This document shows, in pieces, positions 2,452 through 51,504 of a stretch of 64,000 bases of DNA. The stretch's first letter is position 1. Each line of letters opens with the position of its first letter. The notes beneath the pieces were generated by a model. The model saw only the letters and a program-made list of their open reading frames with translations, did no database searches and was not told where the DNA came from. This stretch comes from Candidatus Levyibacteriota bacterium. Lineage in GTDB: Bacteria; Patescibacteriota; Microgenomatia; Levybacterales; UBA12049. The DNA is taken from positions 66,209 through 130,208 of the forward strand of contig JACOXT010000003.1 of the NCBI GenBank assembly GCA_016182235.1. Direction: 5' to 3'. A program made the position numbers and the translations under genes.

Positions 2452-3354
2452 TTAATTAGATGGGGCTTTCATCCTCTTTACTCTATAGCGTCTGTAGAGA
2501 ATATAGATTAGAATAACTGCCGCAATCAATGGAGAATAGACTGCGAGCCAGATGAGGGCTTCAGCTCCAATCCTTAAATTGTCCAAAAGACTTCTTACTG
2601 CATATTTAAAGACAACACCTGGACGGAATGCCTTATCTGGAGTGTAAGGAAGCGCGAGTTCATCGGTTGAAAGGTAAATTGTGATCTTTGACAACTGCGC
2701 GTTTTTCTCGATTGCCTGCTGTTGTCCCCTGAGCGCGTCAATCTGGTCTTGCAAATTAATAAGCTCTCTTTGAACAGTTAAAATATCTTGAACATTAACT
2801 GCTTTATCTAAAATATCCTCAAACTTCACCTGCGTTTTTCTCAAAGTTGCTAATCTTGCTTCTATATCAGTATATTCTTGTGTTACATCGGTACCAACTA
2901 AGTTTTCACTAGTTACTTTAACTGCCAAATTTCTAAAGTAAGAAAGTGTTTGATCTAACTTATCAGTAGGCACGCGTACGGTAATGCTTGCAAAAGGAGA
3001 CTCAGTCGGTCTTGTATAGGATGTGTAAACCATATATCCGCCGTTATCTTTTACATAGGAAAGAATTTGATCACCGGTTTGGCGTACATCCTGAACAAGA
3101 AGAGATATGTTAGATTCTTGTATTACTACTCGATTGCTGGAAACATCAAAACTCTCGATAGACTTTGATTGGGAAAATTCTGGAGCGACTCCACCAATTC
3201 CAGCTTGCGGTAGAGCTTGGGGGTAATCTATATTTTGAAGTGTTCTATATTGAGAAAAAGGAGTGATGCCATTGTTTTTGAGATAAAGATAAATTATTAC
3301 AACAAGAAGAGTGATTATTAACTTGTGTGTTTTAACCCAACTAATTAGCGCCAT
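2452..3354 (-). CDS. DUF4349-like membrane-anchored protein
   Basis: It has an N-terminal TM segment, a coiled-coil region (EARLATLRKTQVKFEDILDK...LINLQDQIDALRGQQQAIEKNAQ) and a C-terminal TM segment, which is typical DUF4349 layout. ATG 3354 is preferred over the ORF-track start 3408 because a promoter sits between them. Confidence 0.75.
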   Translation of the reverse strand: MALISWVKTHKLIITLLVVIIYLYLKNNGITPFSQYRTLQNIDYPQALPQAGIGGVAPEFSQSKSIESFDVSSNRVVIQESNISLLVQDVRQTGDQILSYVKDNGGYMVYTSYTRPTESPFASITVRVPTDKLDQTLSYFRNLAVKVTSENLVGTDVTQEYTDIEARLATLRKTQVKFEDILDKAVNVQDILTVQRELINLQDQIDALRGQQQAIEKNAQLSKITIYLSTDELALPYTPDKAFRPGVVFKYAVRSLLDNLRIGAEALIWLAVYSPLIAAVILIYILYRRYRVKRMKAPSN

Positions 3355-3361
3355 TAATCTT

Positions 3362-3390
3362 AATATAATACTGTAGTTTGTAATTTGCAA
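3362..3390 (-). promoter_or_regulatory. Promoter TTGCAA-17-TATATT, 7 nt upstream of ATG 3354
   Basis: The minus strand reads ttgcaa attacaaactacagtat tatatt aagatta ATG. Confidence 0.55.
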
Positions 3391-3428
3391 TAGCCTATAA
3401 AAGAGCATCTGTTATAATATTTTGATTG

Positions 3429-4270: not shown

Positions 4271-5215
4271 TTACGAACCTAGGAAGTAGATTATAGCAAT
4301 TACGAGAACTGCCCAGATTATAGCGGCTGTTAGGAGCGGTTTATCTGAGAGGAGTACTCTTTCCGGGCTTTCACCCTCGCGTTTCTCATAAATATCCTGC
4401 AGATAGCGCATAAGACCATAAACAACCGGGATAATTGTGATCATAAGCCACTTTCTTTGAAAAAATGCCGGAAGAAAATCTGGCAGAAGGACGCTTATTC
4501 CAAGCTTGAATCCGACTGGGTTTTCCAAAAAAGTAAAAAGCGCGTAAGAGACGAAAGTCGAAGTTGCAAATATGGACGCATAGACATCAAGGAGTCTTTC
4601 GGAATAATGTGACAATGTTTTCCTAATATCTGCTATATTTAGTGATTTATTTTGGGAAACAAGCGTTAGTTCGGATCTTCGTTTGCCAATAGCTAAGAAC
4701 AGAGAAAGTGATATGGTTGTGAGAAGTAACCAGACGGAAATATGAAATCCTCCAGCAAACTCTCCGGCGTAAACTCTTAGTATGTAGCCCGAAGCAATTG
4801 CAAGAATATCAACAACCGGAATTGCTTTTAGGACTGTTGAGTAGTAAAGCTGTATTAATAAATATATAACCGTTGACGCGAAGAATGCCGGGGTTACTGT
4901 AAAAGCTATAACTAAGGAGACAGTTGTCAGTAACACCGCAACTACCAAGGCATAAGGCACAGATAAATCTTGGTGAGCCAGTGGACGGAATCTTTTAAAG
5001 GGATGGAGTCTGTCTTTTTTTATATCAAAGATGTCGTTAACTATATATATTGCAGAGGAGAGTATGCAAAAAACAAAAAAAGCAATTAGTACTTTTTGTA
5101 AAGATGTCCAGTCAAAAAGTTCTCCTGAGAATATTATTGCGGCAAATATTGCAACATTTTTTATCCATTGCCTTGGCCTTAGAAGTTTTAAAGTATTAAA
5201 TGCTATTTTTATCAT
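4271..5215 (-). CDS. UbiA-family polyprenyl-phosphate phosphoribosyltransferase-like protein (DPPR synthase-like)
   Basis: RPRQWIKN, NDIFDIKKDRLHPFKRFRPLA (NDxxDxxxD) and a polytopic membrane profile. Confidence 0.8.
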   Translation of the reverse strand: MIKIAFNTLKLLRPRQWIKNVAIFAAIIFSGELFDWTSLQKVLIAFFVFCILSSAIYIVNDIFDIKKDRLHPFKRFRPLAHQDLSVPYALVVAVLLTTVSLVIAFTVTPAFFASTVIYLLIQLYYSTVLKAIPVVDILAIASGYILRVYAGEFAGGFHISVWLLLTTISLSLFLAIGKRRSELTLVSQNKSLNIADIRKTLSHYSERLLDVYASIFATSTFVSYALFTFLENPVGFKLGISVLLPDFLPAFFQRKWLMITIIPVVYGLMRYLQDIYEKREGESPERVLLSDKPLLTAAIIWAVLVIAIIYFLGS

Positions 5216-8095: not shown

Positions 8096-9589
8096 TTATA
8101 GTTTCTCCGTGACTTTATACTCAAGCTTCTTTCCGAACATTAGTCGAGTATGAGAGATTAAGGCGGGAAGAGTGGAAAGAAATAATCCAACTATCGGTAA
8201 AAATACAAATTCTAATGGAAAAAGATATTTTCTAATTTTAGACGAGGTTATATTTTTTGGTCTGTTTTGAAAGTCAATAAATATCATAGCAAGAGTTGCG
8301 ACTAGACAAAAAGTTAAGATAAGCCCAGCCAAACTTGGCAGTTTGTATCCGAGAGTGGTTCTTGAAAAAACTGGATTTATAAATGTAATTATGTTTGCGG
8401 CTACTGTTATGATAAACCAATTGACTGGCCAAAGAAAGTGGTCTAATAGTACATAAAAGAGCATCACTGTTTTTCTAAAGAACGGAACATTGGGAACAGT
8501 AAACCACCACTTAATAAATAGAGGATCGTCAGACACGCCCCATGACCATCTCTGTTCTTGATGATATTTGTTTTTTAAACTTTTCAAATAGTTTGATGAA
8601 TAAGGAGAATCCATAGATGTTCTTAGGAATATTGGTTTTGTCCACACGTTTCCATGTAACATGTAAAACGCCTTAAAAAAGATTCTGTAGTCTTCGGGAA
8701 TAACGTCTGTATCCCAGAAACCTATTTTTTTTAAGAGATTAAAAGATAAAGAATATGTGGAGTTTGATATTAGCCTGTCGCCTTGGACTAATACCGCAGT
8801 TCTCCAAAGACTGCCGAAAAAAGAGATAATTCTAATTGGGGCTGGCACACGCCAGAAATTATTATAATTTACATTTGCCGACTGCCAGAATTTATTGTAA
8901 GGAAGGGGATCATTTAAGAATTCAAAAGTGAGATATGAAAAGTATTGTCTATCGAACATAGAATCTGCATCAACAGAAGAAACAGTGGCATAATTTATAT
9001 CTATAATATTCGTTTCTACGAGTTTTTGGTAAGCCTCTTTTCCTGCATAGGCTTGGTTAGAGGATTTTCCTTTTACTTCACCAGTGATATCGGGATGAAA
9101 TGTCGCAAGAATCCCTCCAAAGATATTTTTAAACTCGTTCACTAAAATATTTGCTTTTTCTTCGGCATGGCTTTCTCTTTGTTCCATTCCCAAAACAACA
9201 AAGAGACGTTTCGTGGGAAATGTCTGAGTGGAGATAGATCGTAATGTCTCTCTAAGTTTTTGTAAATTTTCTGTATAATTTGGAATTATTATGACATGCG
9301 TAACTTTTTCAAAATTTTTGATTTTTCTTGCTTTTTCCAGCCAATTTTCTGATTCTCCCTTTCTTATTTTCCTCGAAGCAATAAAAGCGGAAATGGCAAG
9401 AGAAAAAGATTTATAGAGCCAATAAACATCAAAAAAAAGAATAAAATAAGCAACAACGAAAGGAATAATAAGAGATCCCCAAATCGGAAAAAGAATTAAA
9501 GTCCACGAAACCAACGCTGGCATCATTTCTAAAATTCTCTTTGTTTTTGTTGGATAACGCGTAAATATTTTATGGAAAAAGTTAGTCAT
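8096..9589 (-). CDS. Membrane-embedded family 2 glycosyltransferase with QxxRW motif (processive synthase-like)
   Basis: VTHVIIIPNYTE, SVDADS and HQEQRWSWG are present, with TM helices at both ends. Confidence 0.75.
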   Translation of the reverse strand: MTNFFHKIFTRYPTKTKRILEMMPALVSWTLILFPIWGSLIIPFVVAYFILFFDVYWLYKSFSLAISAFIASRKIRKGESENWLEKARKIKNFEKVTHVIIIPNYTENLQKLRETLRSISTQTFPTKRLFVVLGMEQRESHAEEKANILVNEFKNIFGGILATFHPDITGEVKGKSSNQAYAGKEAYQKLVETNIIDINYATVSSVDADSMFDRQYFSYLTFEFLNDPLPYNKFWQSANVNYNNFWRVPAPIRIISFFGSLWRTAVLVQGDRLISNSTYSLSFNLLKKIGFWDTDVIPEDYRIFFKAFYMLHGNVWTKPIFLRTSMDSPYSSNYLKSLKNKYHQEQRWSWGVSDDPLFIKWWFTVPNVPFFRKTVMLFYVLLDHFLWPVNWFIITVAANIITFINPVFSRTTLGYKLPSLAGLILTFCLVATLAMIFIDFQNRPKNITSSKIRKYLFPLEFVFLPIVGLFLSTLPALISHTRLMFGKKLEYKVTEKL

Positions 9590-10380
9590 ATCGAAAATAT
9601 CTTTTTTACATTTTTGGTTGTTTGATTTCTTAATTTGTCAAAATTTATACCTCTTAGTTTTGAGATAAATTCACCAATAATTATAACATATTCCGGCCTA
9701 TTTTTGACTCCACGCATAGGCTCAGGTGTCAAGAATGGACTGTCAGTTTCCGTTACAATTCTATCAAGGGGAGCATAAGAAACTAGCTCTTTTAGCTCAA
9801 CTGTTTCCCCTGGAGCAAGGCCACTATAAGTTATATTTCCGTCAAAGCCAATATAGAATCCAAGGTCTAACACTTTTTTGAGGGAATCCAAATCTCCTGA
9901 CATACAGTGGAACATGCCAGGGGGATTTAGGAGATATGGTTTATGATTTTCTAGTATATCGAGTATATCTTTGCCTGCGAGGCGGTTATGGATTTGCAAT
10001 GGTAATTTTAGCTTGTTGGCAAGTATAATTTGCTTTATAAATGTTTCTTTTTGAAGCTTAGGATCAACTATTGAGTTTGATTTGTATCTAAAATAATCTA
10101 TTCCTATCTCGCCAATTGCCACAACTTTTGGATTTTTCGCCAGCTTTTCAAGCTCAAGCTCCCATCCAGCCTCAAGTTTGTCCGCATGGTGGGGGTGAAC
10201 TCCAACTATTGCGTAAAGTTGGGGGTATTTTTGAGCCATCTCAACAGCTCTAAAACTTGAATCAATCTTTGTTCCTACATTAATAATTTTCGTTACCCCA
10301 GCTTTAAACGCACTCTTAATAACTTCATCGTAGTCTTTTTCAAAAGCATGAAAGTTCAAATGACAATGAACGTCAATCAT
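9586..10380 (-). CDS. tatD: TatD-family metal-dependent hydrolase
   Basis: MIDVHCHLNF..., GVHPHHA, GEIGIDY, ETDSPFLTP. Confidence 0.9.
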   Translation of the reverse strand: MIDVHCHLNFHAFEKDYDEVIKSAFKAGVTKIINVGTKIDSSFRAVEMAQKYPQLYAIVGVHPHHADKLEAGWELELEKLAKNPKVVAIGEIGIDYFRYKSNSIVDPKLQKETFIKQIILANKLKLPLQIHNRLAGKDILDILENHKPYLLNPPGMFHCMSGDLDSLKKVLDLGFYIGFDGNITYSGLAPGETVELKELVSYAPLDRIVTETDSPFLTPEPMRGVKNRPEYVIIIGEFISKLRGINFDKLRNQTTKNVKKIFSI

Positions 10381-10397
10381 AAATCCATTATATCAGC

Positions 10398-10436
10398 TTA
10401 AATTCTCGGAAATAGAGGTTTTTGGGAGCTTAGCAT
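10398..10436 (-). pseudogene. Displaced relic of the metG 3' end (MLSSQKPLFPRI*)
   Basis: Bases 10402-10428 match metG 10867-10893 at 26/27 nt. The peptide SQKPLFPRI plus stop is identical and the only differences are synonymous (cca/ccg, ata/att). Weaker homology continues to about 10470. Confidence 0.85.
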
Positions 10437-10461
10437 GAGGTCGGAAGCTACAATTTCCTCT

Positions 10462-10866
10462 TTAATCGATTAGATTTTTCTTTTTTAGATCGGCGAAAAT
10501 AATGTAATCAACGGGAGATAGTAGTTCTTTGGTCGTTGAGTCAAAAAAATCTATTTTCCCAATTTCATTACTTGCCTTGAACGTTCCTTCAAAATCTGAA
10601 GTGTAGCAAGTCATTCTAACTTTTACTCCGATTGGTTTACCGTGAGCTTGAGCTCCAAAAGTTCCGTAATGACTAATAGTTTCTGGTTTTAAATCAACTG
10701 ACAATTCCTCTTTTACTTCCCGAGTCAGTGCTTCAATATCAGATTCTTTGTTCTCTCTTTTTCCGCCAGGAATATACCATACATTTTTTCCAATACTTAG
10801 AGTAACAAGAATCTTTTTGTCTTTAATGAAAATAAATGCAAGTTTGTCTATGTATTTTTTGTTCAT
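10462..10866 (-). CDS. NUDIX hydrolase
   Basis: The Nudix box is GGKRENKESDIEALTREVKEELSV. Its ATG overlaps the metG stop (ATGA). Confidence 0.85.
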   Translation of the reverse strand: MNKKYIDKLAFIFIKDKKILVTLSIGKNVWYIPGGKRENKESDIEALTREVKEELSVDLKPETISHYGTFGAQAHGKPIGVKVRMTCYTSDFEGTFKASNEIGKIDFFDSTTKELLSPVDYIIFADLKKKNLID

Positions 10867-12284
10867 ATTCTTGGAAATAGAGGTTTTTGGGAGACAATCT
10901 TTGACTCTTTAAATTGTTCTTCAATTTTTTTTGAGGTTTCCGGAAGGAAAGGTTTTAATTCAAAGGCAATGTTAATTATATTATTAACAATTGACTGAAG
11001 AAATTGTTTTAGTTTTTCCTTTTCTTTGATTTTCCAAGGCTCCTTCTTATTGATTTGTTGATCAAGTTTTCGTATTTCGTTCCAAATATTTTCTAAAATT
11101 TCATTGAATTTAAAACCCTCAATAGCTTTTTTATAATCTTCAGAAAACTTTGGGGTAGGAGATAGCTTTAAAATTACCCTCTCGCATAGTTTCGCAACAC
11201 GAGCCACTAAATTTCCCAGTCCGTTTGCCAAATCCGCATTGTAAGTTTCTTTTAATTTTTCTTCAGAAAAGTCTCCGTCAGAAAAAGGAGAAACTTTGGC
11301 AAGTAAATAATACCTTAAGGCGTCAGCGCCATATTTTTCAATCAATGGGATTGGATCAATTACGTTCCCAGTAGTTTTTGACATTTTCTGTCCATTTACA
11401 GTTATGTATTCATGGACGAATAGTTTTTTGGGCAAGTTCAATCCAGCAGAAAGAAGAAACGCCGGCCAATATATCGCATGAAATCGAAGAATACCTTTTC
11501 CGATTACATGAAGATCCGCCGGCCACCATTTATTGTATTTTTTTTCATCTAAAGCAAATCCCACCCCAGACTGATAGATGTTTAAAGCATCAAACCAAAC
11601 ATACATTCTTTGTGTTGGATCATTTGGAACACGCACTCCCCAATTTCTTGCTCTTTCATTGGATCTTGAGATACTAATATCCTTGAGACCTTGTTTTATA
11701 AACGAAAGAGCTTCATTTTTTCTCCTATCAGGAATTATTTGAAATTCTCCAGATTTTATAATATTTTCTATTTGTTCTTGATATTTTGAGAGTTTAAAAA
11801 AATAATTTTCCTCAGAAACTTCTTCAAGTTTTTTTCCCGGATGCTCAAAGCATTCTCTATCTTTATCAAGCTCCTCTTCTCCATAAAAAAGCTCACAGCC
11901 AACGCAATAAAGTCCTTTATAGGATTGTTTGTATATATCTCCTTTTTTCAAACACAATTCCCAAAGTTTTTGCGATGATGAGTGATGCTTGGGGTCACTT
12001 CCCTTTTGCCAGACATCAAATTCAACATTCAATTTTCTAGAAAGTTCATGAAAGATGGCAGAATTCTCATCGACAAATTCCTGAATCGGTCTTTTTGCTT
12101 TCTCTGCCGCCTGAACGTTTTTAATCGCGTTCTCATCTCCGCCGCACAAAAGAAGCGTCTCGTCTCCAAGTAATCGATGATATCTTGCTATCGTATCTGA
12201 CTGCACAAATTCCAATGCATGGCCAATGTGAGGCTTTGCGTTTACATACGGAATAGCGTTTGTTATATAAAATTTATTATTCAC
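10863..12284 (-). CDS. metG: Methionine--tRNA ligase (core enzyme, no C-terminal tRNA-binding domain)
   Basis: HIGH motif (PHIGHALE), KMSKT motif (QKMSKTTGNV), 473 aa. Confidence 0.95.
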   Translation of the reverse strand: MNNKFYITNAIPYVNAKPHIGHALEFVQSDTIARYHRLLGDETLLLCGGDENAIKNVQAAEKAKRPIQEFVDENSAIFHELSRKLNVEFDVWQKGSDPKHHSSSQKLWELCLKKGDIYKQSYKGLYCVGCELFYGEEELDKDRECFEHPGKKLEEVSEENYFFKLSKYQEQIENIIKSGEFQIIPDRRKNEALSFIKQGLKDISISRSNERARNWGVRVPNDPTQRMYVWFDALNIYQSGVGFALDEKKYNKWWPADLHVIGKGILRFHAIYWPAFLLSAGLNLPKKLFVHEYITVNGQKMSKTTGNVIDPIPLIEKYGADALRYYLLAKVSPFSDGDFSEEKLKETYNADLANGLGNLVARVAKLCERVILKLSPTPKFSEDYKKAIEGFKFNEILENIWNEIRKLDQQINKKEPWKIKEKEKLKQFLQSIVNNIINIAFELKPFLPETSKKIEEQFKESKIVSQKPLFPRI

Positions 12285-23860: not shown

Positions 23861-25018
23861 ATGCCGGCAGTTCAAAGAAGCGAATTTTTGTTAGCTCTAA
23901 ATCAAGTCGCCAACGAGCGCGGCGTTGATGTTGAAGTGGTTTTAGATACAGTTAAAAATGCAATCCTAGCCGCCTACAAAAAGGATCACCCTGATATAGA
24001 AATTGAGGAATTCACTACGACTTTGGATAAAAATACCGGAGAAGCTAAAATTTCACACAACAGTAAAGACGTTACTCCTCCTGGTTTTGGAAGGATTGCC
24101 GCTCAGACCGCAAGACAAGTAATACTTCAAAAAATTAGAGAAAAAGAAAAAGAAGCAATAATTGCCGATTATAAGCTGAGGATTGGTACTATTGTAAACG
24201 GCATGATCTTACGATTTGCCGGACCAAATATTATTGTTGATGTCGGGAAAACAGAAGCATTGATGCCGTCTCAAGAGCAGATTCCAAACGAAAAATATCA
24301 TTTGAATCAAAGGCTAGCCGTGTATATTCTAGAAATTAGAGAGGGACTGAAAGGAGAGGATATAATAGTATCAAGGTCTAGTAATGGGCTTTTGGAAGGA
24401 TTATTTAAAAGGGAGGTTCCGGAGGTTAGTAAAGGAAATGTCGTTATCAAAAATATCGCAAGGGAGCCTGGCGCAAGAAGTAAAGTAGCTGTATATTCAA
24501 ATCAATCAGGAATTGATCCTGTTGGAAGCTGTGTCGGACAAAGAGGAGTAAGAGTTCAGGCTATAATAGCCGAGTTTGGAGGACTTGAAAAAATAGACAT
24601 TATTCAATGGCATGAAAATATTAAAGATTATATTGCCCAATCCCTGTCTCCCGCTAAGAATGTAAGAGTTGAGATTGAAAAAGAGGAAGACTCGAAGAGC
24701 CCGGGGCAAGAAAAGACTGCTCATGTATTTGTTCCAAGTACGGAATTATCGCTTGCAATTGGCAGAGAAGGACAAAACGTTCGTCTAGCTTCTAGATTAA
24801 CAGGTTATAGAATTGAGATAGAAGAAGAGATAAAAGAGGAAAAACCTTTAGCTACCGAAGAACAGTCCCGCGAAGCGGGATCTGGCTCCGCCAGAAAAAC
24901 AGAGGAAGCACAGAGGGTTAAGGATGCAGGTAAAGTTAGCGATAAAGCGATTACAGAAAAAGAAGAAGTAAGCTCTAAAGTTGAAGCTAAACCAGTTGAG
25001 AAAAAAAAGAAGAAATAA
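23861..25018 (+). CDS. nusA: Transcription termination/antitermination factor NusA
   Basis: MPAVQRSEFLLALNQVANERGVD... has S1 and KH regions and an acidic/lysine-rich tail. Confidence 0.93.
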   Translation: MPAVQRSEFLLALNQVANERGVDVEVVLDTVKNAILAAYKKDHPDIEIEEFTTTLDKNTGEAKISHNSKDVTPPGFGRIAAQTARQVILQKIREKEKEAIIADYKLRIGTIVNGMILRFAGPNIIVDVGKTEALMPSQEQIPNEKYHLNQRLAVYILEIREGLKGEDIIVSRSSNGLLEGLFKREVPEVSKGNVVIKNIAREPGARSKVAVYSNQSGIDPVGSCVGQRGVRVQAIIAEFGGLEKIDIIQWHENIKDYIAQSLSPAKNVRVEIEKEEDSKSPGQEKTAHVFVPSTELSLAIGREGQNVRLASRLTGYRIEIEEEIKEEKPLATEEQSREAGSGSARKTEEAQRVKDAGKVSDKAITEKEEVSSKVEAKPVEKKKKK

Positions 25019-25127
25019 TTTGAAATTTTCAATTTGAAATTTGAAATCAAATATAAATTTTAAAATTTAAAACCATTTAAAATTCATTGAAAATTAAAAA
25101 TTTTAAATTTAAAATTAATCGTATGTT

Positions 25128-27622: not shown

Positions 27623-27628
27623 ATAAAT

Positions 27629-27740
27629 AATTAATTTTCAATTCGAAATTTTCAATTTTCAATGAAGCTTCAAATTTAAATTTTAAAAAATTAAGTTTTC
27701 ATTTCAAATCTTAAATTGAAAATTTTAAATTATTTAAGGT
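27629..27740 (+). promoter_or_regulatory. Long rpsO 5' leader (candidate S15 autoregulatory element)
   Basis: About 110 nt lie between the predicted TSS and ATG 27741, with ttttcaat/attgaaaa-type inverted repeats. Most neighbouring genes have almost no leader. Confidence 0.3.
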
Positions 27741-49868: not shown

Positions 49869-49900
49869 AATACTTAAATAATATATATTATTTAAGTATT
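49869..49900. terminator. Perfect 32-bp AT-rich palindrome (bidirectional terminator candidate)
   Basis: The sequence is aatacttaaataatat|atattatttaagtatt. It lies between the convergent 49562 gene and the ancestral nth end. Confidence 0.55.
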
Positions 49901-49964
49901 TTGGTAATATAATTTCTAAGCGGGCAATTTAAGTGCCTGCAGTGGCCGGGGCAGAAGTTGCGGC
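49888..49964 (-). pseudogene. Displaced relic of an nth 3' end (SRNFCPGHCRHLNCPLRNYITKILK*)
   Basis: By hand alignment, 49905-49964 aligns with nth 50747-50806 at 46/60 nt. The frame is kept, and CPGHCRHLNCPLRNYI matches CPAHCKHSNCPLRNYI. Confidence 0.8.
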
Positions 49965-50018
49965 TATTGGTGAAATCGAATACGGAATAAGGATAGGTAT
50001 GGTACAATATAAAAACTT

Positions 50019-50216
50019 ATGAGAAAGATTAGCGTAAATAAAATTATAAAAAACCAGAATAAATATGTTGTTTTAACAAAAGATAAATCAGATATTTTAG
50101 TATCAGGCGCTTCAATTCAGGAGGTTGAAAAAAAGCTAAGTAAGCTAAGCATAAAAGACGTTGTTATAACCTACATCCCGCCGGTAAATAAGTATCTTTC
50201 TCCGCTATGTCGGTAA
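50019..50216 (+). CDS. Small protein (65 aa) upstream of and overlapping the aspartic-protease-like gene
   Basis: An ORF whose ATG lies 10 nt after an extended -10 TGgTACAAT (50000-50008). No motif was recognised with confidence. Confidence 0.5.
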   Translation: MRKISVNKIIKNQNKYVVLTKDKSDILVSGASIQEVEKKLSKLSIKDVVITYIPPVNKYLSPLCR

Positions 50217-50632
50217 TAAGATTTGACTATACGCCTGAAGTTTTTATTAATCCCAAAACTCAAAAAGTTGACTACATTTATAGACCGCTTGTGGATGTTA
50301 GACTTTCTTATAAGCATAATTTTGGTAAAAATATTATTTCATGTTTGCTTGATTCGGGTGCGGATAAAAATTTATTTCCAGCAAGTTGGGGTGAATCTGT
50401 TGGGATAAACATAAAGAAAGGTGAGTCAGTTCGCCATTATGGAATTGGCGCCAATGATTTGATTGCCTATAGACATAAAGTAATGTTGTATATTGGTTCG
50501 TTTTCTTTTGAAGCATATTCTGATTTTAGTTTTGAGCAAAGTTTTCCACTTCTTGGCAGAGAGGGTTTTTTCAAATACTTCAAGGAAATTGTTTTTAATG
50601 AAAAAGGAAGATTTGTAAATCTTAAATATTAA
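50207..50632 (+). CDS. Retropepsin-like (clan AA) aspartic protease family protein
   Basis: The signature LLDSGADKNLFP (D-S-G-A) sits in a 141-aa protein, the size of single-lobe retropepsin-like proteins. Confidence 0.65.
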   Translation: MSVIRFDYTPEVFINPKTQKVDYIYRPLVDVRLSYKHNFGKNIISCLLDSGADKNLFPASWGESVGINIKKGESVRHYGIGANDLIAYRHKVMLYIGSFSFEAYSDFSFEQSFPLLGREGFFKYFKEIVFNEKGRFVNLKY

Positions 50633-50738: not shown

Positions 50739-51359
50739 TTATCTTTTAATATAATTTCTCAGTGGGCAATTGGAGTGTTTACAGTGAGCTGGACAATAGG
50801 TGCGGCCGTAAGCGATCATTCTATTTGTAAAATCAAACCACTCCTCACGCGGTAAAATTTTCATCAAGTCTTGTTCGATTTTCTCTGGATTTTTGTTATT
50901 TGTAAGTCCAAACAAGCGAGAAAGCCGTGTAGCATGAGTATCAACTGCAATACCTTCAGTTATTCCATATAAATTTCCCAAAATAATATTTGCTGTTTTT
51001 CTGCCCACTCCCGGCAGTTTGGTTAGCTCGTTCATTGTTCTTGGAATTTGACCCTTGTATTTTTCATCAATTATTCTCGCAGTTTCTTTTATAAATTTTG
51101 CTTTTTGCCGAAATAGTCCAAGTTGACTTAAATCTTTTTCAAGTTCGCTTAAATTTATGTTTTTATAGTTCTTAATTTCTTTATATTTCTCAAAAAGTTT
51201 TTCAGTTACCTCGTTTACTTTTTTGTCCGTATTTCTAGCTGATAAAATGACTGTAGTTAAAAGCTCAAAAGGAGTTGTGTAATTAAGAATTGTTTTAGAG
51301 TTAGGAAACAATTCTTTTAAAATCTTCAAAATTTCTTCTATTTCTTGTTTTTGACTCAT
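50739..51359 (-). CDS. nth: Endonuclease III
   Basis: HhH-GPD (LTKLPGVGRKTANIILG), VDTHATRLS and a C-terminal Cys cluster CPAHCKHSNC. ATG 51359 is preferred because TGtTATAAT lies 7 nt upstream of it. Confidence 0.9.
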   Translation of the reverse strand: MSQKQEIEEILKILKELFPNSKTILNYTTPFELLTTVILSARNTDKKVNEVTEKLFEKYKEIKNYKNINLSELEKDLSQLGLFRQKAKFIKETARIIDEKYKGQIPRTMNELTKLPGVGRKTANIILGNLYGITEGIAVDTHATRLSRLFGLTNNKNPEKIEQDLMKILPREEWFDFTNRMIAYGRTYCPAHCKHSNCPLRNYIKR

Positions 51360-51366
51360 ATCAGGC

Positions 51367-51375
51367 ATTATAACA
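51367..51375 (-). promoter_or_regulatory. Extended -10 TGtTATAAT, 7 nt before nth ATG 51359
   Basis: The minus strand reads tgttataat-gcctgat-ATG. Confidence 0.55.
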
Positions 51376-51504
51376 TTTGACCCCTTGACATTATAGAGCG
51401 ATATGTGATATAAGAATAACACTCTATAAATATATAAAGAAAAACAATAAGGCTAGTGTTGCCTTTGTTTTTTTGTTGGTAGAGAGACTACGACATATTC
51501 TCAA

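Follow-up and report, generated by a model that had tools for sequence, protein, structure and literature searches.

The locus described here raises the question of why the 3' end of a housekeeping gene, the methionyl-tRNA synthetase gene metG, is present twice, once on each side of a Nudix hydrolase gene. It lies in a 64,000-nt stretch of contig JACOXT010000003.1 from a Candidatus Levyibacteriota bacterium (the window; all coordinates are window positions, and L-numbers denote loci of relatives). The order on the minus strand is metG, the Nudix gene, which overlaps metG in the four bases ATGA, a 33-nt spacer, the second copy of the metG end (the relic), 17 nt and tatD. With a probability of roughly 0.6, a Nudix segment carrying the last metG codons recombined into the end of metG and displaced the native end, which persists as the relic. 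The evidence comprises the repeat, the gene order in relatives, a recombinant tract, the coincidence of the edge of that tract with the edge of the repeat, and the presence of relics in other lineages.

The metG open reading frame (ORF; 10863-12284, minus strand) encodes the short form of the enzyme, with 473 residues ending in ...VSQKPLFPRI (Pfam tRNA-synt_1g, E = 5e-98). Its TGA stop overlaps the ATG of the Nudix gene (10462-10866, minus strand; 134 residues; Pfam NUDIX PF00293, above the cut-off with E = 3.5e-9) as ATGA at 10863-10866. The active copy of the repeat consists of the last nine metG codons and the TGA stop (10863-10893, minus strand; delimited from the sequence and by comparison with L049), and its final 10 nt (AAGAATATGA), which give the ATGA overlap with Nudix, are identical to the L049 type. 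The relic (10398-10428, minus strand), found by repeat search, local alignment and nhmmer, duplicates the metG end, SQKPLFPRI followed by TAA, at a displaced and non-coding site, and its frame translates as ...SSQKPLFPRI and a stop. Positions 10402-10428 and 10867-10893, which lie 465 nt apart, agree at 26 of 27 nt. If the comparison takes in the stop codons (10398-10428 and 10863-10893), 28/31 positions agree, and the first 21 nt, CTCCCAAAAACCTCTATTTCC, are the same in both. All three differences between the relic and the active copy are silent: CCA/CCG, ATA/ATT and TGA/TAA.

An earlier note on this DNA, made from the sequence alone, had reported this repeat with its silent changes, and both the alignment and a 27-mer search bear it out. 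The weaker similarity that it had seen farther upstream (10447-10470 versus 10893-10915) does not hold. Local alignment of the metG tail with the downstream DNA (score 49 versus a null maximum of 27) ends at 27 nt, and the nhmmer match covers 33 nt of the relic; in the stretch concerned, 10462-10470 is the Nudix stop with the last two codons, and 10429-10461 (minus strand) is the post-Nudix spacer (AAGAGGAAATTGTAGCTTCCGACCTCATGCTAAG), which is conserved in relic-free relatives. This spacer is homologous to the post-Nudix spacers of L049, L142, L143 and L137; it accompanies Nudix in relatives and does not derive from metG. Its reading as an older, decayed metG relic is suggestive by eye and was dropped, being unsupported by a metG-tail profile search.

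A pair of this kind might be no scar at all, and be due instead to chance, a dispersed repeat, a functional motif (promoter or operator) selected twice, or an assembly artefact; PLFPRI is a conserved motif of methionyl-tRNA synthetase (MetRS), and some similarity between tails is expected. The 27-mer, searched with up to three mismatches, has just two sites in the 64 kb, as against 0.00 expected per shuffle set (100 shuffles, with zero chance matches), and in 760 kb of related loci the repeat core is restricted to metG ends and relics. A dispersed repeat unrelated to metG, the counter-explanation named in the earlier note, is ruled out by these counts. Reading frame, stop codon and distance to the next gene are all kept. 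L055 and L056, per-run Logan assemblies made separately for the same strain, each contain both copies unchanged, so that three independent assemblies agree. Because the per-run assemblies agree and the repeat is probably shorter than the usual assembly k-mers, an assembly artefact is unlikely.

A function in transcription bears on the same alternative. The relic sits where the -35 region would fall for a candidate tatD promoter, the extended -10-like motif TGATATAAT (10387-10395, minus strand; read from the sequence), which begins two bases after the relic stop and ends 6 nt before the tatD ATG. The relic would then occupy the upstream promoter region of tatD, with any -35 element inside it. 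TATAAT-like motifs stand at the same position upstream of tatD in L049, L005, L140 and L001; against the functional reading, the relic is missing from relatives that have a TATAAT motif in front of tatD, and they manage without it. A consensus promoter scan requiring both hexamers found no match, and no known RNA, terminator or canonical promoter was found in 10250-11000. An origin of the repeat without any scar is scarcely credible.

A MetRS scan of representative genomes yielded 48 loci, in which direct adjacency of metG and tatD is widespread among the outgroups. metG adjoins tatD with a gap of 5-75 nt in L004, L008 (a Levybacteria metagenome-assembled genome), L010, L012, L013, L015 and L019, and further loci have a gap of 0.1-1.6 kb. 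The tatD gene of the window (9586-10380, minus strand; TatD-family hydrolase of 264 residues; Pfam TatD_DNase, E = 1.8e-76) is, by this synteny, the ancestral downstream neighbour of metG. The relic retains the spacing of direct adjacency, that is, stop, 17 nt and tatD ATG (15 nt in L004 and 18 nt in L008), and its ending, ATT TAA, matches that of L002, in which no Nudix gene follows metG; the active metG ends in ATA TGA, the source of the overlapping Nudix start. Nudix homologues of at most 66% identity in other Patescibacteria never lie beside metG or tatD. Because the adjacency is widespread, the relic keeps its spacing and ending, and the distant Nudix homologues reside elsewhere, the Nudix gene is taken as a derived insertion into the ancestral metG-tatD junction and the relic as the former metG end next to tatD, in line with what the earlier note had proposed on both counts.

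The metG-tatD interval has varied content: nothing in L004 and L008; Nudix in the window, L049 and L147; Nudix and an acetyltransferase in L140; a 239-aa ORF, Nudix and GH57 in L145; and a TrpR-like gene in L003. Directly behind Nudix stands tatD in the window, L049 and L147, an acetyltransferase followed by tatD in L140, a membrane protein in L141, and a glycoside-hydrolase or phosphorylase-like gene followed by tatD in L001 and L145. A TrpR-like gene takes this place in L137, L144 and probably L139, the contigs of L137 and L144 ending before any tatD. Since the post-Nudix content differs between lineages, the interval is regarded as a cassette hot spot. Around it lie hrcA, grpE and dnaK to one side, tatD and glycosyltransferases to the other, and PMT is also among the neighbours.

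The metG-Nudix pair itself is not confined to the window. It occurs with the same ATGA overlap in L049-L054/L057, L143, L137/L138, L139, L144, L141, L140 and L147, where the Nudix protein is 90, 86, 85, 84, 82, 79, 74 and 71% identical to that of the window, respectively. L001 and L145 carry a more divergent Nudix allele, and the metG-Nudix junction is different there. The first Nudix insertion is ancient, and not a private or recent event, as about ten deeply diverged lineages share the pair; the retention of the overlap in these lineages suggests translational coupling. Because the pairing is old, the near-perfect repeat cannot date from the first insertion, and must stem from gene conversion or from a subsequent re-insertion or exchange.

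The Nudix segment has a history of its own. Synonymous divergence (dS, by the NG86 method) between the window and L049 is 0.45 for Nudix, as against 2.19 for metG, 1.86 for tatD and 2.27 for GT497, the 497-aa glycosyltransferase-like ORF beyond tatD, and third-position identity is 79% for Nudix and about 52% for metG and tatD. The Nudix gene is thus incongruent with its flanks, a comparison that the earlier note had put forward as a check. Codon constraint is not the reason for the low value, because L001, which has a similar metG (79% amino acid identity to the window, L049 76%) and a closer hrcA (88%, L049 77%), has a Nudix protein of 71% identity and a Nudix dS of about 2. Other Nudix pairs likewise coalesce more recently than their metG genes, with dS of 0.40 versus 1.35 (L137-L143), 0.48 versus saturation (L139-L143) and 0.69 versus 1.90 (L137-L139). 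A Nudix tree joins L001 to P0011 with 100% bootstrap and places both outside the group formed by the window and L049; the deeper nodes are weak (26-50%), and the history was judged by dS instead of by topology.

A two-breakpoint maximum chi-square analysis of the window-L049 alignment, together with sliding identity and dS, delimits a recombinant tract of high identity to L049 (10469-10892, minus strand). The segment 10892-10469 has a chi-square of 58.7, versus a column-shuffle maximum of 20.2, and identity to L049 is 89.6% inside it and 72.3% outside. The tract has its left edge at 10892, a single base away from that of the repeat. Codons for identical residues differ synonymously at 7/10 just upstream of this edge and at 3/24 downstream (Fisher p = 0.002, for a boundary chosen after looking). 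The proposal in the earlier note that the insertion brought a replacement metG end is therefore supported: the tract starts at 10892, and Nudix has a dS of 0.45, versus 1.9-2.3 in metG, tatD and GT497. As a refinement, the event concerned would be later than the first insertion.

In the preferred account, 10398-10428 would be the native 3' end of metG, with its last nine codons and stop still attached to tatD and the promoter-like motif. The incoming segment, of about 440-465 nt, would have consisted of the last few metG codons overlapping a start codon (...AAGAATATGA), the Nudix gene and the 33-nt spacer, and would have arrived after the original metG-Nudix fusion of the clade. On this account metG would now terminate in imported sequence, and the old end would have moved 465 nt downstream as a non-coding direct repeat. 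The patch of homology would be the conserved metG end (...PLFPRI), the sole well-conserved DNA in a fast-evolving part of the gene. Most likely, a Nudix fragment in circular or tandem form would have entered by a single crossover within the metG end common to both partners, 21-31 nt long; a crossover on the shared end would duplicate the homology and explain why both tract boundaries lie at repeat copies, and it is the preferred version. Homologous recombination on one side combined with illegitimate joining would be an alternative route.

No integrase, transposase or other recombinase was found in or beside the unit, Nudix being the sole ORF of its 465 nt, and the event is for this reason ascribed to host recombination on DNA from related Levybacteria. 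Patescibacteria are reported to be naturally competent and to keep genes for homologous recombination (PMC12455944). As for carriage by viruses, a degenerate pattern of the core had no match in IMG/VR, where merely remote Nudix-box matches were obtained. A transposon, insertion sequence or miniature inverted-repeat transposable element with a target duplication (2-14 bp) was considered and rejected: no terminal inverted repeats were found at the insert ends (10429/10872), there is no transposase, and the repeat, of 21-31 nt, is a gene end. A compositional anomaly of the insert, a further check raised in the earlier note, was also rejected, as the Nudix segment has the same GC content (0.34-0.36) as the DNA around it. 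If the insertion is recent, close relatives lacking Nudix would show ...CCGAGAATTTAAGCTGATATAATGG directly after the metG body.

Several observations weigh against this account. With 21-31 nt, the homology barely reaches the length that RecA-type recombination requires. As the pair is ancient, the identical 21/21 stretch demands a later event that is not directly observable. The collections searched contain no relative closer than about 77% (tatD) or 80% (metG), and a look-up of the exact MetRS protein returned solely the Nudix-bearing contig, few contigs of the strain being in existence. The closest relative, L049, has Nudix and the same spacer without a relic. In other pairs the rise in identity begins 83-95 nt before the Nudix ATG, at the start of the conserved PFLPET...PLFPRI block; the tract start at the repeat edge is for that reason specific to the window-L049 comparison, and breakpoints may sit in the conserved tail simply as the sole conserved DNA nearby, which weakens the argument from coincidence. 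Finally, the identical 21 nt carry CCTCTA, like the tails of L001 and L145 (CCTCT) and unlike that of L049 (CCCCTT). Both copies thus look resident-like at this site, which a simple crossover could explain only through heteroduplex repair or an unsampled donor.

In an alternative with a different direction of transfer, a fragment from a close relative with direct metG-tatD adjacency would have recombined homologously in tatD or GT497, its other end being joined illegitimately behind the Nudix spacer. The Nudix-tatD interval would have been replaced, and 31 nt of the donor metG end would have come along as a passenger. Such an event would be ordinary homology-facilitated illegitimate recombination (PMC3240628), requiring no duplication geometry. 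The interval is highly variable in relatives, where it holds a repetitive extragenic palindromic (REP)-like hairpin, a TrpR-like gene, GH57 or an acetyltransferase; variable relic lengths suit random fragment ends, and the native layout of stop, 17 nt and ATG would be kept. The donor metG end would have to be identical over 21 nt, yet differ at 3 of the next 10, and no such Nudix-less close relative is among the sampled genomes. Moreover, the tract boundary at the left repeat copy would be fortuitous, unless the conserved tail were merely a crossover hot spot. We regard an import from the tatD side as rather improbable.

The relics of other lineages bear on a further alternative. An nhmmer profile built from 14 metG tails gives three significant matches downstream of metG genes. 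These are in L141 (48 nt, about 60 nt by eye; E = 0.0011; reading KITFQPLLFPRR and a stop), in the window (33 nt aligned; E = 0.0033) and in L143 (31 nt, about 40 nt by eye; E = 0.014; reading SSQKPLFPRI and a stop, and ending in AGAATTTAA like the window relic). In L142, a fragment reading SQKSLFPRL and a stop lies immediately upstream of Nudix, behind a TrpR-like gene instead of a metG body. No relic was found in L049, L145 or L147, and in L049 the spacer is followed by a REP-like hairpin where the window has its relic. Relic lengths and upstream junctions differ between lineages. The window is alone in having a relic similar to the tail of its own metG; in L143 and L141 the relics are closer to a tail of the SQKPLFPRI type, which has since been lost from the metG genes of these two loci.

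These relics could be read as traces of the clade's original Nudix insertion, the first 21-22 nt of the window relic having been overwritten by gene conversion from the active metG end while its last 10 nt (CCG AGA ATT TAA) kept the old state. The L143 relic lies behind the same spacer, has the same AGAATTTAA ending and shows 4/31 differences from the window relic, and the L141 and L142 copies have CCG AGA like the window relic. The CCTCTA of the identical 21 nt is unique to the tail of this lineage, occurring in no other tail or relic, and all three differences between the window copies fall within the 3' 10 nt. Conversion, however, needs homology that a neutral 30-nt relic of that age should have lost (flanking dS > 1.8), and L049, L145 and L147 carry no relic. 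The relic lengths of 31-33, 31-40 and 48-60 nt, with their differing upstream junctions, are more easily explained by independent events, and the start of the recombinant tract at the repeat edge would be left unexplained. An ancient scar refreshed by gene conversion is unlikely. Re-insertion of the cassette by crossover, an ancient relic with gene conversion, and import from the tatD side are not separable with relatives at 77-80%, and the crossover is preferred.

Palindromes accompany several of these junctions in relatives. REP-like palindromes at gene ends, of the form GAGATTGCTTCGC...CTCGCAATGAC, follow the Nudix spacer in L049 (about 4460-4495) and in L142 (at its 3' end), at the place taken by the relic in the window. 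Near-perfect palindromes, TTCGATGATTCGAATCATCGAAG or TTTAATGATTTAAATCATTAAAG, lie upstream of TrpR/YerC-like genes behind Nudix, and also beside Nudix or the relic in L141 and L142 (L137 about 3000-3025, L144 about 545-575, L139 about 2470-2495, L141 about 1355-1380 and L142 about 375-400). The latter palindromes look like operators; none of this type was found in the window.

Two further genes of the window have duplicated ends. The 54 ORFs of at least 100 aa were scanned for a copy of their last 63 nt in the 4 kb downstream, and three cases had z > 9: metG, groEL and nth. groEL ends at 905 on the plus strand, and its last 61 nt, 845-905, recur at 2386-2446 with 56/61 identities and the stop kept. 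The copies are separated by 1480 nt, and the second lies in an intergenic region bounded by two minus-strand ORFs, tRNA_bind (2033-2368) and DUF4349 (2452-3408). Besides this tRNA_bind ORF, the DNA between the copies contains an AA_kinase ORF (1272-2036), preceded by a T-box-like leader, as well as a hairpin and a promoter. The promoter is a perfect TTGACA-16-TGnTATAAT at 947-974, within the groEL-flanked insert and upstream of the amino-acid-kinase gene. The leader, 992-1206, is a sub-threshold T-box match (30.4 bits versus a gathering score of 93; E = 4e-5 in a 421-nt search) that contains AAGGUGGUAUCACGG and may be a divergent T-box of the Candidate Phyla Radiation (CPR); terminator-like hairpins stand at 1131-1148 and 1196-1242, likewise upstream of the amino-acid-kinase gene.

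The nth gene (endonuclease III, HhH-GPD; 50739-51422, minus strand) has a copy of its end at 49905-49964 with 46/60 identities (...CPGHCRHLNCPLRNYI...). The nth tail reads ...YGRTYCPAHCKHSNCPLRNYIKR and a stop, versus ...FDFTNSRNFCPGHCRHLNCPLRNYITKILK and a stop for the relic, whose frame spans about 49888-49989 on the minus strand. The nth copies are separated by 794 nt with two small plus-strand ORFs, at 50019-50216 (a weak DUF5678 match) and 50207-50632 (a DSGA motif, no Pfam match). The nth case is the third, and an older one. Other features of gene ends in the window are a REP-like palindrome, ATCCTGAACTCGTTTCAGGAT, directly after groEL at 919-939, and an AT-rich motif (AATTTTCAATTYGAAATTT...AAATTTTAAAA) that recurs in two intergenic stretches behind genes (25017-25065 and 27626-27688). 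No tRNA genes, and no Rfam families at gathering score, were found in the 64 kb.

At metG, groEL and nth alike, the stop codon lies at or close to the end of the repeat, and the next gene follows directly upon the relic. Because the three cases show the same pattern, they argue for a general, sequence-independent process rather than one recombinase, and they bear directly on the idea that the 21-31 nt core at metG is an att-like site for a recombinase encoded elsewhere, with the core, Nudix and spacer as a mobile cassette. The unit is discrete and lies between direct repeats, its history differs from that of its flanks, and the end of the target gene is restored, as in e14/icd (PMC13626634); in L142, moreover, a core fragment stands directly upstream of Nudix, separate from a metG body. 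Yet there is no recombinase in or near the unit, junctions and relic lengths vary between lineages, and L049, L145 and L147 carry Nudix without a second core. The core and Nudix are absent from the viral contigs searched (IMG/VR), and the duplicated ends of groEL and nth are of unrelated sequence, so that one specific recombinase cannot explain all three. A site-specific cassette is very improbable.

The three duplicated ends among 54 ORFs in 64 kb, together with the repeated recent coalescence of Nudix, are the grounds for a broader and tentative reading, which we put forward with more doubt than confidence. Duplicated 3' ends may mark a general, recombinase-free mode of gene gain in Levybacteria and other members of the CPR. 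Imported fragments starting within the conserved end of a housekeeping gene would integrate through a single crossover on 20-90 nt, supply a new end and leave the native one as a relic; the cassettes, flanked by repeats, could then be excised as loops, form circles and enter further lineages at an identical landing pad. If the three ends are typical, duplicated gene ends could be a simple, alignment-free marker of recent gene gain in CPR metagenome-assembled genomes and could map the landing pads of accessory-gene turnover.

As to the proteins concerned, the Nudix hydrolase has an intact Nudix box, GGKRENKESDIEALTREVKEEL, to be compared with the consensus GX5EX7REUXEEXGU. Searches for a specific function returned only generic MutT-like matches in PDB and NCBIfam, with no equivalog at the cut-off. 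That about ten lineages couple MetRS to Nudix by ATGA may point to a functional link; one speculative possibility is that the Nudix enzyme removes dinucleoside polyphosphates made by the synthetase. A second four-base ATGA overlap, at 9586-9589, joins tatD to the 497-aa glycosyltransferase-like ORF (8096-9589). Several Levybacteria TatD homologues (P0130, P0138, P0168, P0211, P0215 and P0219) carry 20-30 additional residues in frame at a single position (such as HPEFISESRSRNKFGMTGK and RHPGAPSFDGAIGSPSRDSIASLQNDN), which look like translated REP-like elements within the coding sequence; the TatD of the window has no such insert.

Among known systems, the closest in outcome to be compared is the insertion at icd. 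According to the account in PMC13626634, which cites Hill et al. 1989, in E. coli K-12 the 3' end of icd is where the e14 cryptic prophage, like phage 21, is integrated, and an icdC pseudogene fragment lies at the far end. The metG locus is similar in that the insert lies within the 3' end of a conserved housekeeping gene, which ends in element-borne, mainly synonymously different sequence, and in that the displaced native end persists as a non-coding direct repeat beyond the insert; loss of the DNA between the repeats would give back a chimeric but functional gene. As in insertions of the e14 type, gene-end direct repeats flank the insert and metG ends in insert-borne sequence; an encoded integrase, and the same core and junction in independent insertions, are lacking. 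e14 spans 15 kb and has its own integrase and excisionase and a fixed att core, whereas the insert described here, 30 times smaller at about 440-465 nt, carries a single Nudix gene without a recombinase, its repeat is just 21-31 nt, relic lengths vary among lineages, and scars of this type also mark two further, unrelated genes of the window.

The Neisseria minimal mobile element (MME), a concept of 2007 recounted in PMC3787668, is exchanged by transformation and homologous recombination in conserved flanks. As with an MME, the whole-gene cassettes found between metG and tatD differ from one related lineage to another and lack mobility genes, and exchange is ascribed to transformation with homologous recombination. 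Variable content between flanks, the lack of mobility genes and terminal repeats, and a cassette history incongruent with that of the flanks (dS and breakpoint scan) are all found here. The classical double crossover of an MME leaves no duplication of a flanking gene end; here, in contrast, one crossover would lie within the last 10-30 codons of metG and the other junction outside any conserved gene, yielding the direct repeat.

In experiments on homology-facilitated illegitimate recombination, anchors are hundreds of base pairs long and the outcomes are usually deletions of recipient DNA. The effective homology at metG may, by comparison, be just 21-90 nt, and the product keeps and duplicates recipient sequence. 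The likeness lies in the combination of one homologous anchor with one non-homologous joint, by which foreign DNA is placed beside a conserved gene with no function supplied by an element, as in natural transformation (PMC3240628). Taken with the competence reported for Patescibacteria (PMC12455944), this process would be a plausible host-encoded route.

A comparison can also be made with the genomic islands at the 3' ends of tRNA and tmRNA genes, in which a conserved gene end may similarly be said to serve as the landing site, with a partial copy at the distal junction. Those islands are flanked by attL/attR repeats, are kilobases long, carry tyrosine or serine integrases and target an RNA gene, unlike the Nudix insert at metG. 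Set beside these systems, the duplicated metG end is a well-explained recombination scar and a known kind of feature; what is new is its integrase-free, miniature form. The pattern recurs at three genes in 64 kb. The locus is a base-resolved case of single-gene gain beside an essential gene, which was left unbroken, without mobile-element machinery, in an ultra-small and probably transformation-dependent bacterium.

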